From Eledone cirrhosa (Eukaryota): a stretch of DNA of 64,000 nt. Positions 43,763 to 63,962 of the stretch are shown in pieces. A program made the translations under genes and the position numbers. Position 1 is the first letter of the stretch; each line of letters opens with the position of its first letter. The notes under the pieces were generated by a model, which did no database searches, was not told the origin of the DNA, and saw only the letters and a program-made list of their open reading frames with translations. The stretch is taken from contig OZ024747.1 of assembly GCA_964016885.1 (NCBI GenBank), forward strand, positions 16,554,001 through 16,618,000, in the 5' to 3' direction.

Positions 43763-44086
43763 GTATGGATTGACCGAACATTTATTATAATGCTCGGTGT
43801 GTTTGTAAACAAACATCCCGAATTAAGCCGTACAGTGTCTAGCAACCATCGTTGCTCATTTGTTCAACACTGACAAAGGAACGCTGTACTAGTTTCAAGC
43901 TTATTAGCTATCTACGGCTCAATTCGGGATGTTTGTTTACAACACACCGAGCATTATAATAAATTTTTCTGTGAATCCATACGTACATATATATATGTGT
44001 GCATGTATGTATATATATATATATATATATATACATACTGCTCTACGTCTGTATACATATATGTATGTAGGTATACATACTTATAT
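43613..44086 (-). mobile_element. Dispersed copy of the 422-bp-unit fold-back element
   Basis: Forward arm 43613-43911, inverted arm 43912-44086; both match the array unit; (TA)n flanks. Confidence 0.88.
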
Positions 44087-44112: not shown

Positions 44113-44371
44113 ATAAAGAACAAAAAGATGAAATCGAAAATACAACTGGAGTCTTATTTAAAAAAATATATATATATTTATTTGTTTCCTTTACCGGTCT
44201 CGCAGTTCTTCTGTTTTTCAAAAGTAGAGTTGAGAGAGAGGGTTTGTTGTTTTTCTCACATCTGTGAGAAAAACCACAAACTGCGAAACCGGTACACGAA
44301 CCAAATAAATATATATATTGTTTTTTAAATAAGACTCTAGTTTCATTTTCGATTTCATCTTTTTTCTTTAT
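44113..44371. repeat. ~95-bp inverted repeat with inner hairpin (possible Penelope-like pLTR relic or MITE)
   Basis: 44113-44207 is the reverse complement of 44279-44371 with several mismatches; inner stem tttttctcaca/tgtgagaaaaa. Confidence 0.8.
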
Positions 44372-51439: not shown

Positions 51440-51732
51440 ATGATGTGTATAGAATATTATATTAATAAAAGGAATTCCAACTTTGTCTAATTTAGTCGTT
51501 TTATTTACAATCCTTTAAAATTATAATGATATTATAATGAAATAGTATGGTAGAATATTGAATGTTAATTGAACAAGTACTTTCATGCTTTCGCAATCTG
51601 CAGGTTCATGTTCTGTGATGACAGTCAGGTTTGCAATGTTCAACTGTGTATATATGTATATATATATTATATATATATATATTATATATATTATATATAT
51701 TATATATATATATATATAAATATATATATATA

Positions 51733-51765
<33 letters not shown>

Positions 51766-51770
51766 GTATG

Positions 51771-51801
<31 letters not shown>

Positions 51802-52021
51802 TACATATATACACAGTTGAACATTGCAAACCTGACTGTCATCACATAACATGAACCTGCAGATTGCGAAAGCATGAAAGTGCTTGTTCAATTAACATTC
51901 AATATTCTACCATACTATTTCATTATAATATCATTATAATTTTAAAGGATTGTAAATAAAACGACTAAATCAGACAAAGTTGGAATTCCTTTTATTAATA
52001 TAATATTCTATACACAATCAT
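51440..52021. repeat. Long near-perfect palindrome, ~230-bp arms around an AT-only spacer
   Basis: 51444-51670 is the reverse complement of about 51790-52016, with 3 substitutions seen by eye. Confidence 0.93.
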
Positions 52022-54560: not shown

Positions 54561-56742
54561 GTTACATTATTTGAATTGTGTTTTATGTATTCAATGCTTT
54601 GAAAATGTCTTCATGTAAGCCTATTACTGGATAATATTGATAGGATTAACGTGAATACGGCTTTAGTAATTATTTCTTTTGTACTGCAAATATATAAACT
54701 TTAGTGTAAATTTCGTGGAATTTTAACTTCGTATCCTACAAGGGCAACCCTTAATATTGTATAATACCTATCTACCATTTCTAGCAAGACAAAATACTCT
54801 AACGAGCGATATCCAGTTTCGGTACAAAAAGTATTCATAATTATAAAGTATATCGACTGCAAACACATTTCCTTTTACAAGATAAAAGTAAATGTCTTGC
54901 TAATGGATTTACAAGTAATTTTGCAGCGCAAAGTTAAGTATCAAATTAGTAAATTGTTTCAGCTCATCATTAAGAATCACTTTGCCTACACATGTTTTCG
55001 TCATGAGAAAACAAATGTTGTTAATGTCCATCCGGAAATTAAACTTCATATTATTTGTTCTGAAATTAAACAGAACTCTTTAGAAATAAAAGATAAATTC
55101 CGTCTACTCAAACGTTCATATATGTTTTCACAATCAACCGTGTTAAATCAAAAGATATATAATTATATCATTTTATCCTTATCCATACTCAATATTGTTA
55201 GCAAACAATAATACGGATTGAAAGAGAGTATATATTCGCGTTTAGATGTAATCTACACCAGATCGCATATATCAGAAAACAGATTGATCTGAATGTACTA
55301 TATAATAGCTGTGGGAAGGAGTAACCAGTTAAGGCGACGTCAACCTAATTTATTTTCAGTTGTAAGTGTTCGACAACTGATGAAAACGGACTGAACGTCA
55401 AAGACTCAATGATATCGTCAGTAACTTGATATTAATTCATGACAATGAGAAAAGCTGTTACGAGATTACCAACTAACAAACTACAATATACGTTCAATAA
55501 TATTTCGTGTACTTGACGTCATGTGACACTTTGTAATGTAACTATGGCAATTGAGATAGGAATATCATACTAGCCAACAAAGAAGAATACAATGGGCTAT
55601 GTTTGCTGGAAAAGACAAGTAATTATCCTTCATATTAAATAGGGAACACACCATATAGCCCTAAAACATTACAATTTTACAGCTGTAAATGTTTTATTAG
55701 GGTTGGTGTGCGTCTAAGCATCAAAAGTACTAACTGAAATATGATTTTCTTTCAAGTACTCTTCCTGAAAATAAGAAAGGATGGAGAGATAATAACAATT
55801 TCAAATGTGCAACTGTATTTCTTTTCGTTTATGTTCGTTCGTTGTTCAATTTGTGTCAGACTATACATTCATAAAACGGCGGCTGAACAAACAAATACCA
55901 TTATCGATCATATGAATCGAACAGACAGTGATAATTAAGTTGTTGTGTTTATACTAAACATGATGAATTCTTTTTTAGTGTGCTACAGAGGAAGAAGAAA
56001 CATTGACATGTTGATTCTGGGGAATATAATAACATTAGGTTAGAAATTAATGATAGTCTTTAATTACTACTTAACCTATGTTCAGATTGCATTAAGTAGA
56101 CATGCTATCAAAAACATTGTAACTTTGACGCACAGGTAGGGCGAGGTAGGGCGACGTTAATAATGTATGTCCTACCATGAGCCACCAAACTGTGGTTTGT
56201 GGGGAGAGCTGCCTGCTATTTCTATCACGTGGAAAGATCACACAGAAATGTCTTCAGTGTGTCAAAAGTCTCAATGGGTAAAAGCGTATTTCGAGGATGA
56301 TACAATTTAATTTGAATTTCTGAAATTCAATTTTACAAAATATTTTCCAAATCAAACGAACGCCATGACAGATATATCATTTAAGTCATGTAAATGTTAC
56401 AATGCAAGCGAGAAATCCATTACTCTTGGACATAACTAAGTTACTTTCGGTTGGTAGACAGGTTAACTGTACATTTGATTAGAAAGTCATTTAAAGTATT
56501 CGACCTTGAATGTCAATTCCATTGACATATATGAGCTTAATAAAAATAGTAAATCGCGCTCAGGGTAAATGAAGGATGAATCATGATGTATTTGAAACGA
56601 TTTAAAGAAAAGTGTTGATAATATTAGACAAATGCTCTATATAGATTTATATAGTTCTCCATCTCTCTCACAGTGAAGAGAATGGATATTGTGAAGATTT
56701 TAAGTGGGTATTGTAATTTAATTTGGGTCATTATTATTAAGA

Positions 56743-56938
56743 AGTGGATTGGTAGTATCGGTAGAGGGTCAGACGCCATGCTTTGCAGCAAAGAGTTACG
56801 GCCCTTTATGGTCTGAGTTCAAATCCCGCTGAAGTTAACTTTGCCTTTCATCCTTACGGGGGGGTCGATAAAATAAAGTACCAGTAATGCACTGGGTAAT
56901 TGCTAGCCTTGTTCCAAAAGTAGAAACAATTATTATTA
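56743..56938 (+). mobile_element. tRNA-derived SINE family 1
   Basis: Full head/body/tail; ttattattaagaag appears on both sides (TSD-like). Confidence 0.88.
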
Positions 56939-57500: not shown

Positions 57501-57591
<91 letters not shown>

Positions 57592-57597
<6 letters not shown>

Positions 57598-60500
57598 TAA
57601 GTATGTACACGTACATACACATATGCATACCGACGTACAGTAGTATGTATACATATATATACATACATGCACACATATATATATGCACGTATGGATTCAC
57701 CGAACATTTATTATAATGCTCGGTGTGTTTGTAAACAAACATCCCGTATTAAGCCGTAGTGTCTAGCAACCACCGTTGCTCGTTTGTTCAACACTGACAA
57801 AGGAACGCTGTACTAGTTTCAAGCTTGTTAGCTATCGTCAGCAACGTATACCTTCCTGCCAGATTGTTGAACGTATATACTTACCTTATGCATATTAACG
57901 GCTGAGTAGCCCAATTTGCATATCGAGTGGGTTAATCGGCCGGGTGCACCGAAAACGATAAACGGAAAAAATGAAACGATATTTCATTTCCCACTCTTAG
58001 TACGGCTGTTACTTAAATATAAGTATGTACACGTACATACACATATGCATACCGACGTACAGTAGTATGTATACATATATATACATACATGCACACATAT
58101 ATATATGCACGTATGGATTCACCGAACATTTATTATAATGCTCGGTGTGTTTGTAAACAAACATCCCGTATTAAGCCGTAGTGTCTAGCAACCACCGTTG
58201 CTCGATTGTTCAACACTGACAAAGGAACGCTGTACTAGTTTCAAGCTTGTTAGCTATCGTCAGCAACGTATACCTTCCTGCCAGATTGTTGAACGTATAT
58301 ACTTACCTTATGCATATTAACGGCTGAGTAGCCCAATTTGCATATCGAGTGGGTTAATCGGCCGGGTGCACCGAAAACGATAAACGGAAAAAATGAAACG
58401 ATATTTCATTTCCCACTCTTAGTACGGCTGTTACTTAAATATAAGTATGTACACGTACATACACATATGCATACCGACGTACAGTAGTATGTATACATAT
58501 ATATACATACATGCACACATATATATATGCACGTATGGATTCACCGAACATTTATTATAATGCTCGGTGTGTTTGTAAACAAACATCCCGTATTAAGCCG
58601 TAGTGTCTAGCAACCACCGTTGCTCGTTTGTTCAACACTGACAAAGGAACGCTGTACTAGTTTCAAGCTTGTTAGCTATCGTCAGCAACGTATACCTTCC
58701 TGCCAGATTGTTGAACGTATATACTTACCTTATGCATATTAACGGCTGAGTAGCCCAATTTGCATATCGAGTGGGTTAATCGGCCGGGTGCACCGAAAAC
58801 GATAAACGGAAAAAATGAAACGATATTTCATTTCCCACTCTTAGTACGGCTGTTACTTAAATATAAGTATGTACACGTACATACACATATGCATACCGAC
58901 GTACAGTAGTATGTATACATATATATACATACATGCACACATATATATATGCACGTATGGATTCACCGAACATTTATTATAATGCTCGGTGTGTTTCGGT
59001 GCACCCGGCCGATTAACCCACTCGATATGCAAATTGGGCTACTCAGCCGTTAATATGCATAAGGTAAGTATATACGTTCAACAATCTGGCAGGAAGGTAT
59101 ACGTTGCTGACGATAGCTAACAAGCTTGAAACTAGTACAGCGTTCCTTTGTCAGTGTTGAACAAACGAGCAACGGTGGTTGCTAGACACTACGGCTTAAT
59201 ACGGGATGTTTGTTTACAAACACACCGAGCATTATAATAAATGTTCGGTGAATCCATACGTGCATATATATATGTGTGCATGTATGTATATATATGTATA
59301 CATACTACTGTACGTCGGTATGCATATGTGTATGTACGTGTACATACTTATATTTAAGTAACAGCCGTACTAAGAGTGGGAAATGAAATATCGTTTCATT
59401 TTTTCCGTTTATCGTTTTCGGTGCACCCGGCCGATTAACCCACTCGATATGCAAATTGGGCTACTCAGCCGTTAATATGCATAAGGTAAGTATATACGTT
59501 CAACAATCTGGCAGGAAGGTATACGTTGCTGACGATAGCTAACAATCTTGAAACTAGTACAGCGTTCCTTTGTCAGTGTTGAACAAACGAGCAACGGTGG
59601 TTGCTAGACACTACGGCTTAATACGGGATGTTTGTTTACAAACACACCGAGCATTATAATAAATGTTCGGTGAATCCATACGTGCATATATATATGTGTG
59701 CATGTATGTATATATATGTATACATACTACTGTACGTCGGTATGCATATGTGTATGTACGTGTACATACTTATATTTAAGTAACAGCCGTACTAAGAGTG
59801 GGAAATGAAATATCGTTTCATTTTTTCCGTTTATCGTTTTCGGTGCACCCGGCCGATTAACCCACTCGATATGCAAATTGGGCTACTCAGCCGTTAATAT
59901 GCATAAGGTAAGTATATACGTTCAACAATCTGGCAGGAAGGTATACGTTGCTGACGATAGCTAACAAGCTTGAAACTAGTACAGCGTTCCTTTGTCAGTG
60001 TTGAACAAACGAGCAACGGTGGTTGCTAGACACTACGGCTTAATACGGGATGTTTGTTTACAAACACACCGAGCATTATAATAAATGTTCGGTGAATCCA
60101 TACGTGCATATATATATGTGTGCATGTATGTATATATATGTATACATACTACTGTACGTCGGTATGCATATGTGTATGTACGTGTACATACTTATATTTA
60201 AGTAACAGCCGTACTAAGAGTGGGAAATGAAATATCGTTTCATTTTTTCCGTTTATCGTTTTCGGTGCACCCGGCCGATTAACCCACTCGATATGCAAAT
60301 TGGGCTACTCAGCCGTTAATATGCATAAGGTAAGTATATACGTTCAACAATCTGGCAGGAAGGTATACGTTGCTGACGATAGCTAACAATCTTGAAACTA
60401 GTACAGCGTTCCTTTGTCAGTGTTGAACAAACGAGCAACGGTGGTTGCTAGACACTACGGCTTAATACGGGATGTTTGTTTACAAACACACCGAGCATTA

Positions 60501-61943
60501 TAATAAATGTTCGGTGAATCCATACGTGCATATATATATGTGTGCATGTATGTATATATATGTATACATACTACTGTACGTCGGTATGCATATGTGTATG
60601 TACGTGTACATACTTATATTTAAGTAACAGCCGTACTAAGAGTGGGAAATGAAATATCGTTTCATTTTTTCCGTTTATCGTTTTCGGTGCACCCGGCCGA
60701 TTAACCCACTCGATATGCAAATTGGGCTACTCAGCCGTTAATATGCATAAGGTAAGTATATACGTTCAACAATCTGGCAGGAAGGTATACGTTGCTGACG
60801 ATAGCTAACAAGCTTGAAACTAGTACAGCGTTCCTTTGTCAGTGTTGAACAAACGAGCAACGGTGGTTGCTAGACACTACGGCTTAATACGGGATGTTTG
60901 TTTACAAACACACCGAGCATTATAATAAATGTTCGGTGAATCCATACGTGCATATATATATGTGTGCATGTATGTATATATATGTATACATACTACTGTA
61001 CGTCGGTATGCATATGTGTATGTACGTGTACATACTTATATTTAAGTAACAGCCGTACTAAGAGTGGGAAATGAAATATCGTTTCATTTTTTCCGTTTAT
61101 CGTTTTCGGTGCACCCGGCCGATTAACCCACTCGATATGCAAATTGGGCTACTCAGCCGTTAATATGCATAAGGTAAGTATATACGTTCAACAATCTGGC
61201 AGGAAGGTATACGTTGCTGACGATAGCTAACAAGCTTGAAACTAGTACAGCGTTCCTTTGTCAGTGTTGAACAAACGAGCAACGGTGGTTGCTAGACACT
61301 ACGGCTTAATACGGGATGTTTGTTTACAAACACACCGAGCATTATAATAAATGTTCGGTGAATCCATACGTGCATATATATATGTGTGCATGTATGTATA
61401 TATATGTATACATACTACTGTACGTCGGTATGCATATGTGTATGTACGTGTACATACTTATATTTAAGTAACAGCCGTACTAAGAGTGGGAAATGAAATA
61501 TCGTTTCATTTTTTCCGTTTATCGTTTTCGGTGCACCCGGCCGATTAACCCACTCGATGTGCAAATTGGGCTACTCAGCCGTTAATATGCATAAGGTAAG
61601 TATATACGTTCAACAATCTGGCAGGAAGGTATACGTTGCTGACGATAGCTAACAAGCTTGAAACTAGTACAGCGTTCCTTTGTCAGTGTTGAACAAACGA
61701 GCAACGGTGGTTGCTAGACACTACGGCTTAATACGGGATGTTTGTTTACAAACACACCGAGCATTATAATAAATGTTCGGTGAATCCATACGTGCATATA
61801 TATATGTGTGCATGTATGTATATATATGTATACATACTACTGTACGTCGGTATGCATATGTGTATGTACGTGTACATACTTATATTTAAGTAACAGCCGT
61901 ACTAAGAGTGGGAAATGAAATATCGTTTCATTTTTTCCGTTTA
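57592..61943 (+). repeat. 422-bp tandem array, 3.3 forward units + 7 inverted units (fold-back), inside (TA)n
   Basis: Period 422 (gtatgtacac at 57601, 58023, 58445, 58867); orientation switch at 58994-58997; reverse units start at 58997, 59419, 59841, 60263, 60685, 61107, 61529. Confidence 0.97.
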
Positions 61944-63219
61944 TATATATATATATATACACATATATAATAGATAGTTGATAGATATACGTGTGTGCAT
62001 GTATGTGCTTATGCATATGCATGTATGTGTGTGTATTTATCACCGGATGATTTCATTTCTTGTAAATACCAGTTATGTTTTACAGTACATATATACTAAT
62101 CTAATCCTTTTAGATAACTTAACTGCCCAGAAGCTCTATATAGAAGCTTCACCAGAAAACATACGAATTCAGAAAATTAAGCCAAATAACAAAAGTTTTT
62201 ATTTCATAATATATGAATCAGAATATTTTGAATCAAAGTATATATTGAATTATCCATATAAATAGCCAAGCATTGCTTAAATACTATATGTATTCAAGTA
62301 TAATCTTACATATATGACAGCATATGGCTTCTTGAGTGACTGGAATATATTTAACACGAACGTGGTACTCATATACAGGAACAGTGTTGGTGTGAATTAG
62401 AATTATACAGTAAATATGATATTGGTGCATTCAAAGTCTCTCCACTTTTAATATACTCTACCAGCTCTAATTGCATACACACAATACATTATAAATGCTT
62501 CAACAGAAATGATCTCATGTTACTATGATTCAATTTGACAGCAAATACAATTACTCATTTTGAATCATCACAAAGGAAATAGATTCATTCATGAAAAATA
62601 TATTTTTTGGATTATAATCAACCCAATACTAATAAACCTGATAGTCTCTCACATTGGTAAAAAAACTGAAGGTCAGTCACTGATGTACATAATCAATTGA
62701 ATCGTCCTCACAAAACATCAATCCTGTGGCTGATTATACTACAGATAGCAGCCAAAATTAATTACACGTTACATTGCCAACTGAAAACAAATAATTATGT
62801 AGTTCTTGATGTTGCAATGCATAATAAGGGCTATACTGGTATGAAATAACACCATGGATTTAAGAAGAACCTCAAAGTAATAATACCCTCAATGTAATAA
62901 TAGTCGTGAATTGATATTTTTTCGGAAAAAAGATATTCAGGAGTTAAAATGTTTTCAATTATATATTTCTTGCAAATGAAGATGTGCCGGATCTCTGTAG
63001 ATTATTATTTACAATTTGAAACACAGTTGGGAGACGATTCAAGAAGTGACCAAACTGTATTGAACATTTGGATAGCAAGAACGTGGCAAATCATCTTGCA
63101 GCACATCACAAATACCACCATATCACAGAATTCCCTAATGATAATGTGTGTTCCGGATTCTCCAGTAAAAATATTATTGAGATTATATTAGACTTTACTG
63201 TATGTGAACGAATAGCTAA

Positions 63220-63962
63220 ATAATTGTTTCTACTTTTAGGCACAAAGCCAGCAATTACCCAGTGCATTACTGGTACTTTATTTTATCAACCCCATAAGGA
63301 TGAAAGGCAAAGTCAACCTCGGCGGGATTTCAACTCAGAAGCTAAATAATGTATTCCCAAAACATATATCACATTTTTTTAAATATTGGTAATTGATTCT
63401 GCTTCCGGCATAAGGCCAGTAATTTGAAGATGAAATTAAATAGGTCTAAATCGAACTCAGTGCATTACTGGTACTCTATTTTATCGATCTCGTAGTGATT
63501 TAAGGTAAAGCTTACTTCAGCAAAGACTGATTTCAGAAAAGGGACGTAACTATATGCCACACAGTCTGATGTCCTACCCTCTACCGATACTACCAATCCA
63601 CACCCTATTTAAAGTAGTAATAAGGGTTTCTGACTTAGGCACTAGGCCAAATAGGTTAGCGGGAAGGGAGAAAGTTGATTGAATTGACCCCTGTACGTTA
63701 CTGGTACTTTATTTTATCCACCCCGTAATGTTGTAAGGCAAATCTAATCTCGGCGGTATTGATATTAGAGCGTTTTAGGCCGTAACTATATGCCACAAAG
63801 CACATTCTCGACGCTCTACCGATATTGTAAATCCACCACCTTATTAAAAGCAGTAATAATTGTTTCTACTTTTGGCACAAGGCCAGCAAGTACCGCAGTA
63901 CATTACTGGCACATTATTTCATCAACATCGTAAGGATGAAATACAAAGTTAATCTCGGCGGA
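63220..63962 (-). mobile_element. Cluster of four co-oriented SINE family 1 copies
   Basis: Copies at about 63220-63342, 63388-63606, 63620-63840 and 63855-63962, each with the tactggtac...gatgaaaggcaaag-like core. Confidence 0.8.

Follow-up and report, generated by a model that had tools for sequence, protein, structure and literature searches.

A hammerhead-motif-bearing 422-bp tandem repeat in Eledone cirrhosa, probably inserted by a Penelope-like route

The subject of this study is an array of 422-bp units at positions 57592–61943 of a 64,000-nucleotide stretch of the Eledone cirrhosa genome (assembly GCA_964016885.1, contig OZ024747.1, 16,554,001 to 16,618,000 of the forward strand), the whole of which is termed the window and provides the coordinates used throughout. 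The evidence assembled below indicates that the array is probably one insertion, made from both cut strands of a (TA)n tract, of a non-autonomous Penelope-like, hammerhead-motif-bearing non-coding repeat, i.e., a retrozyme that lacks long terminal repeats (a non-LTR retrozyme). An earlier note on this DNA had proposed a single mobile-element insertion, its arms composed of head-to-tail copies of its own unit, rather than an ordinary satellite, and that proposal is supported. Published work is cited by accession.

With window positions 59834–60255 (+) taken as the reference unit U, in the coordinates of which arm positions are quoted, Tandem Repeats Finder (TRF) delimited two period-422 arrays, 57592–58996 (3.3 copies) and 58994–61944 (7.0 copies), both at 99%, and just four differences (58205, 59546, 60390 and 61559) were recorded across 4,352 bp. 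These data bear out the earlier description of 3.3 plus 7 units meeting at a TTT junction with (TA)n on both sides (Table 1), and likewise its claim of asymmetric ends, which fall at U422 and U367, an offset of 55 bp in unit phase (422 − 367); the two outer tips of the array share 4 nt only. The right arm is composed of U5–422 followed by six whole units, with U422 at 61943. The fold-back with arms of about 1.2 kb that had also been proposed stands in part: the arms are real, and pair over 1,207 bp, but only around a 195-nt central loop, the palindrome being imperfect, and cruciform extrusion is unlikely across a spacer of that length. At 39% GC and with a longest open frame of 53 aa (six frames of a trimer), the 422-bp unit codes for no protein. 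The near-identity of the units makes it likely that the insertion is young, and the numbers of units in the arms could be mis-assembled. Two of the four differences, 59546 and 60390, are the identical change, U135 G>T; position U135 reads G, T, G, T, G, G, G across right-arm units 1–7, with T in units 2 and 4, and this change is absent from the family variants listed at a level of at least 2% in the contig comparison described below.

Table 1. Features of the 422-bp array and of its older copies in the window (arms in coordinates of the reference unit U)
Feature	Position	Strand	Remarks
Left (TA)n target tract	57520..57591	.	~36 repeats, preceded by a (CA)n run
Inverted arm	57592..58996	-	3.33 units, U229 (58996) to U367 (57592), without the tail; minus strand is RNA-sense
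Three predicted hammerhead motifs of inverted arm	57805-57847, 58227-58269, 58649-58691	-
TTT microhomology, 3 nt	58994..58996	.	common to both arms; joins truncated 5′ ends head to head
Main arm	58994..61943	+	6.99 units, U5 to U422; plus strand is RNA-sense
Predicted type I hammerhead motif, U112-154	59101..59143	+	predicted cut after 59137 (U148); 7 copies at 422-bp spacing
55-bp 'tail', U368-422	61889..61943	+	at right outer end; absent at left outer end
Right (TA)8 target tract	61944..61959	.
Older copy A	20548..20791		arms U349-422 (minus) and U193-364 (plus), meeting at a 1-nt microhomology (20622); arms 96% and 87% identical to U
Older copy B	43613..44086		arms U123-422 (minus) and U200-364 (plus), meeting at a 1-nt microhomology (43912); arms 91% and 85% identical to U

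A BLAST search of the unit against the window identified two older copies, A and B, 85–96% identical to U, and comparison of these with the young array demonstrated that the outer ends lie at U422 and U364–367 in all three copies (U364 in A and B, U367 in the young array). The inner 5′ ends differ in all three, being U349/U193, U123/U200 and U5/U229, and are joined by microhomologies of 1, 1 and 3 nt respectively. All six outer ends lie in (TA)n, with few repeats only at the short end of copy A. The chance of A and B matching both outer ends was put at ~5 × 10−6, a rough figure for which any of the 53 TA steps of the unit was allowed. A 6-bp hairpin is predicted around the short end (U364–367), which falls in its loop, and another hairpin precedes the long end (U422). 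Each older copy is adjoined by an old inverted-repeat element resembling a miniature inverted-repeat transposable element, at 44113–44371 and 20295–20480, with arm identity of ~78%.

On sequence criteria, the 422-bp unit carries a predicted self-cutting hammerhead motif, consisting of a 6-bp stem I, a CUGACGA core, a U.U plus 4-bp stem II, GAAA and a palindromic stem III (ACUAGU), with UA at the predicted cut. Ten cores were located, seven in the right arm (plus strand) and three in the left (minus strand), and every one of them has the orientation in which the RNA-sense 3′ ends point outward and the 5′ ends meet centrally. The presence of the motif in every unit on one strand points to an RNA intermediate. 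A stem descriptor was passed by eight of the ten motifs, several of them in consecutive units, the two failing motifs (cores 59529 and 60373) being those with U135 G>T, a stem II mismatch; the same descriptor rejected all 5,000 dinucleotide-shuffled versions of the unit and was passed by one further site in the 64-kb window. A match to Rfam Hammerhead_HH9 extended over the full model (19.2 bits, E 0.0087 with a 106-base query), with the 6-bp helix I and its internal loop aligned. For the monomer predicted between successive cuts, the folding energy is −145 kcal/mol (z −6.7, equalled by 0 of 100 shuffles), to which the TA-rich stretch contributes part.

That one further descriptor match is a second, unrelated type I hammerhead-like motif (18491–18559), with an 8-bp A/U-rich stem I, a long stem II and a palindromic stem III, lying in a 253-bp insert (18338–18590, +) between TA tracts. 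A degenerate (AT)n tract of 1.4 kb occupies 16931–18337. The insert is single-copy in the window, has no Rfam hammerhead match, and is possibly a fragment of another Penelope-like element or retrozyme.

The architecture corresponds closely to that reported for Penelope-like elements (PLEs), the insertions of which are partial tandems, often with an inverted 5′-truncated copy and a tail of 30–40 bp at one end; a (TA)n bias is recorded for Naiad and Neptune, and non-autonomous forms insert as head-to-tail multicopies (PMC8557442). In vitro, both strands of the target are cut and extended by a PLE protein, which starts reverse transcription at two internal sites, the tail being the stretch between them and uncut RNA the main template (PMC11167929). 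All three window copies exhibit both an inverted 5′-truncated copy joined at its 5′ end and a one-sided tail between two fixed end sites, and the microsatellite (TA)n target without a readable target-site duplication is also present. With endonuclease-bearing PLEs (Penelope/Poseidon, Neptune, Naiad; PMC8557442, PMC11167929, PMC4209133) the array shares the partial tandem, inverted copy, one-end tail and (TA)n target, together with a hammerhead upstream of the two end sites and a palindromic helix III. Unlike them, it has no frame for reverse transcriptase (RT) and GIY-YIG endonuclease, has a tail of 55–58 nt rather than 30–40, and has many units in both arms; a unit lacking such a frame is not an autonomous PLE. 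Chlamys elements such as MRC1 are likewise non-autonomous PLEs that form multicopy head-to-tail insertions in microsatellites, but belong to green algae, target (CA)n or (C)n, and for the most part lack hammerheads (PMC8557442). For Octopus vulgaris, 31 recently active Penelope-like families are listed, and the words hammerhead and ribozyme are not used in the available text (PMC13282606); the 422-bp unit may belong to a library of that kind.

Retrozymes are tandem repeats of type I hammerheads for which PLEs are considered the likely mobilisers (PMC7229834; bioRxiv 10.64898/2026.07.22.740005), the non-LTR form being defined as a tandem repeat of 150–450 bp with a GC content below 50% (PMC7229834), without protein coding and with a type I hammerhead motif in two or more consecutive units. 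At 422 bp and 39% GC, non-coding, and with the motif in consecutive units, the present repeat falls within that sequence definition. It resembles the animal non-LTR retrozymes of these two sources as a non-coding tandem repeat (350–390 in mussel, 422 here) of GC below 50%, with a type I hammerhead in each unit, a strongly self-paired monomer and a proposed mobilisation by PLEs. Those retrozymes are described as plain head-to-tail arrays, to which the array in E. cirrhosa adds an inverted arm and a one-sided tail; in the available texts the word 'inverted' occurs nowhere in PMC7229834 and once in bioRxiv 10.64898/2026.07.22.740005.

The geometry, namely the unit, its motif, the fixed outer ends and the variable inner ends, is seen directly, and from it we infer each enzymatic step of the following scheme. 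A tandem donor would be transcribed into multi-unit RNA, part of which would be cut by the ribozyme, probably as a dimer, into 422-nt monomers and circles. A partner GIY-YIG nuclease would cut both (TA)n strands, and each free end would serve as a primer for the reverse transcriptase at a separate internal site, U422 for one and U364–367 for the other, aided by TA microhomology, the use of two internal priming sites leaving the 55-nt tail on one side only. The enzyme would copy several units of a multimer, or run round a circle, for 7 and 3.3 units before falling off, and repair would join the two cDNA ends via 1–3 nt of microhomology to give the single flip. The U135 pattern is not what seven circuits of a single monomer circle would leave, short of a subsequent block duplication, and fits a multimeric transcript or subsequent unequal exchange, some of which may have taken place in the right arm. 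A Neptune-type partner would be more likely than a Naiad, because Naiads lack canonical hammerheads.

The occurrence of the family in other sequencing runs was then considered. The stretch was partly present in 20 of the 24 runs listed, 16 of them at a share of at least 0.2, under 13 organism labels. No RNA run was listed among these, apart from four rows of possible RNA at a share of 0.05, a result that is neutral as to expression. Four runs (X1, X4, X5 and X6) were compared with the last unit plus its flank, using contigs only, which yielded 8,240, 95, 5 and 3 contigs respectively; in X1 the summed depth approached a million on the unit as against 11 on the flank, a contrast that is not a copy number. 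These data show that the 422-bp family is very abundant. Head-to-tail U422–U1 joints were present in X5 (record 17) and X6 (records 22 and 24), in organisms C and D, and opposite-strand family joints in two of the four runs, X1 (U222/U360) and X6 (U2/U116). Among the 18 loose ends listed, with 199 more besides, record 22 of X6 passes from unrelated sequence into the unit exactly at U367. Loose ends at U364 in X5 match the short end but were not counted, since they consisted of 35–36 low-complexity bases with 5–6 differences. The comparison masked 61795–61839 and 61931–61976, and TA-rich ends across the family were not counted. No locus turned up when collections of metagenome, viral and prokaryote sequences were searched by pattern.

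The 43-nt hammerhead holds five of the 30 variable places listed for the unit, namely N7, loop II, H17 (where the change from A to U is permitted) and the stem I partners U115 and U151, while its 11 invariant core bases hold none. The tolerant pattern of variation as a whole has a P value of ~5 × 10−4 with position roles assigned by the analyst. Both stem I changes are apparently on one contig of organism C (depth 5.64, record 18). A subfamily in X1 and X4 has 8 extra bases at 61605 (U84) that end in a pyrimidine-rich, splice-acceptor-like CAG, ~30 nt upstream of the hammerhead; PLEs are reported to retain an intron that ends near helix I (PMC4209133).

A number of results weigh against a Penelope-type insertion of a ribozyme-bearing repeat. 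As regards the motif, the HH9 score is far under the gathering threshold of 52 bits, no Rfam hammerhead was found on 59000–60300 (1.3 kb), where the 68 sub-threshold matches were mostly to microRNA models on the TA-rich part and were judged to be chance, and the whole window gave no match at the Rfam gathering threshold. As between a canonical hammerhead with loop 1–loop 2 contacts and the minimal PLE type, the features are mixed: helix I with its internal loop aligns to HH9, but the U.U replaces the usual G10.1–C11.1 pair (PMC4209133), a substitution reported in one axolotl family (PMC7229834), and helix III is a bare palindrome. Motifs with short palindromic helix III show poor cleavage in monomeric form and, within tandem repeats, act as dimers (PMC4209133, PMC6765202). 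The minimum free energy fold yields stems I and II and not the active core, avoidance of the core by variation is not significant taken alone (P 0.21), a U159 T>G variant (25%) breaks the outer extension of stem I, and eight of nine predicted Xenopus retrozymes failed to cleave in vitro (bioRxiv 10.64898/2026.07.22.740005). As regards the insertion, the fixed outer ends are known from three copies only, the tail exceeds the published length, the array junction U229/U5 is absent from the joints listed for X1, and a PLE from the anole primes without use of target homology. An autonomous partner with RT and GIY-YIG was not found in the window: none of its 52 frames of at least 100 aa resembled a PLE protein by eye, and Pfam searches of eight frames returned no families.

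Of the processes that might otherwise account for the array, growth in place is unlikely: the insert would have been short at first, like copies A and B, and both arms would have lengthened later, in the manner of a budding satellite, through slippage or unequal exchange. The occurrence of U135 G>T in units 2 and 4, given its absence from the listed family variants, fits duplication of a two-unit block, and bioRxiv 10.64898/2026.07.22.740005 favours local amplification; a donor array that already held the variant would, however, also explain the pattern. Moreover, both arms are multi-unit, ~99.9% identical to each other and cleanly ended at two fixed sites, and local growth needs more than one starting unit, from which it follows that at least part of the tandem arrived with the insertion. 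Mobilisation of the RNA element by an ordinary long interspersed nuclear element (LINE; RTE, R4/CRE or L1 type) rather than by a Penelope enzyme is very unlikely. L1 twin priming, in which two target ends prime on element RNA and microhomology unites the cDNA ends head to head, yields the same flip. The second priming site of L1-type elements is variable, however; here the second end stays within a 3-nt range in all three copies, the template is multi-unit, and the unit has neither poly(A) nor a LINE-like 3′ end. A remnant of a non-LTR retrotransposon is present in the window, and LINEs are listed among possible mobilisers (PMC7229834); the combination of tail, tandem and (TA)n is nevertheless described as PLE-specific (PMC8557442, PMC11167929).

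The transposition mechanisms offered in the earlier note, Helentron/Helitron (HUH) read-through with a template switch or an FB/Galileo fold-back, proved not to be supported, and a DNA element of either kind is now largely refuted, with very little probability left to it. Helitrons and Helentrons have a fixed 5′ start (TC or a subterminal inverted repeat), a 3′ end of CTRR or a subterminal inverted repeat, and one orientation, and FB/Galileo elements have matching inverted tips at both ends and a target-site duplication of fixed length. Tandem units, a hairpin near the U422 end and a unit junction, A/TC, that resembles a Helitron start are consistent with such an origin, but the inner ends, six in all, lie at U5, 229, 349, 193, 123 and 200 and never at U1, and the outer ends read TTTA or TTATAT rather than CTRR. 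The tips, with so little sequence in common, differ in unit register by 55 bp, the 25 longest of 27 inverted repeats include no subterminal pair close to both ends, and the hammerhead motif in each unit would be left unexplained. Least probable of all is that the flip arose as an assembly or chimeric-read artefact, for which the absence of the U229/U5 joint among those listed for X1 could be adduced. The flanks are not mirrored and the centre is offset by 195 nt, two older, diverged copies share the end site at which the inverted arm stops, two of the four runs compared contain opposite-strand joints of the family, and the flank contig of X1, which differs from the window at 62181, may represent another haplotype.

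Within the preferred explanation, a Penelope-type insertion of a non-LTR retrozyme, a more specific proposal is possible but doubtful, namely that such arrays arise in a single step. A dimer of the Penelope enzyme would prime both cut (TA)n strands at two fixed sites, separated by 55 nt, of the same multi-unit or circular ribozyme RNA, and synthesis of the first copy would tend to stop on meeting the second. The arm started at U422 ends 15–60 nt from a U364–367 start site in two of the three window copies, and the opposite-strand joints of X1 and X6 have one side at U360 and U2 respectively.

Other features of the window were recorded in passing. A palindrome at 51440–52021, with arms of ~200 bp at 95% identity and a central TA-rich tract, has a layout opposite to that of the 422-bp family. 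A SINE-like (short interspersed nuclear element) family of ~180 bp, which we take to resemble an octopus SINE, is represented by about ten copies of 68–88% identity (56740–56920; near 3–154, 508, 16350, 33669, 42096 and 50601; 63235–63961). A 223-aa frame (33970–34638, −) resembles the C terminus of a protein from a non-LTR retrotransposon; it has no Pfam match itself, and 75 of 132 protein-search candidates reached E ≤ 1 × 10−20, three of them with PF13966. A 121-aa frame (39318–39683, −), which resembles the remnant of a Pif1-type helicase as in Helitrons, has no Pfam match and no link to the array.

The component parts, namely hammerhead tandem repeats and Penelope tails and inversions, are known, and the array is likely not a new DNA transposon. 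No description of this family, or of a retrozyme with a Penelope tail and inversion, was found in the literature searched, which lay outside Repbase, Dfam, most subscription journals and supplements. Penelope mobilisation of retrozymes has been argued from co-occurrence and phylogeny (PMC7229834; bioRxiv 10.64898/2026.07.22.740005), to which a retrozyme-type array with a Penelope tail and an inverted arm would add structural evidence. Transcription through the locus would give double-stranded RNA of ~1.2–1.4 kb. The origin of the inversion by twin priming on one RNA is listed as an open step (PMC8557442), and, given a family that is abundant and common to several organisms, tabulated ends and junctions could test it. 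Were the one-step proposal true, the family would record Penelope inversion and tail formation thousands of times over, and would constitute direct structural proof that Penelope enzymes move retrozymes.

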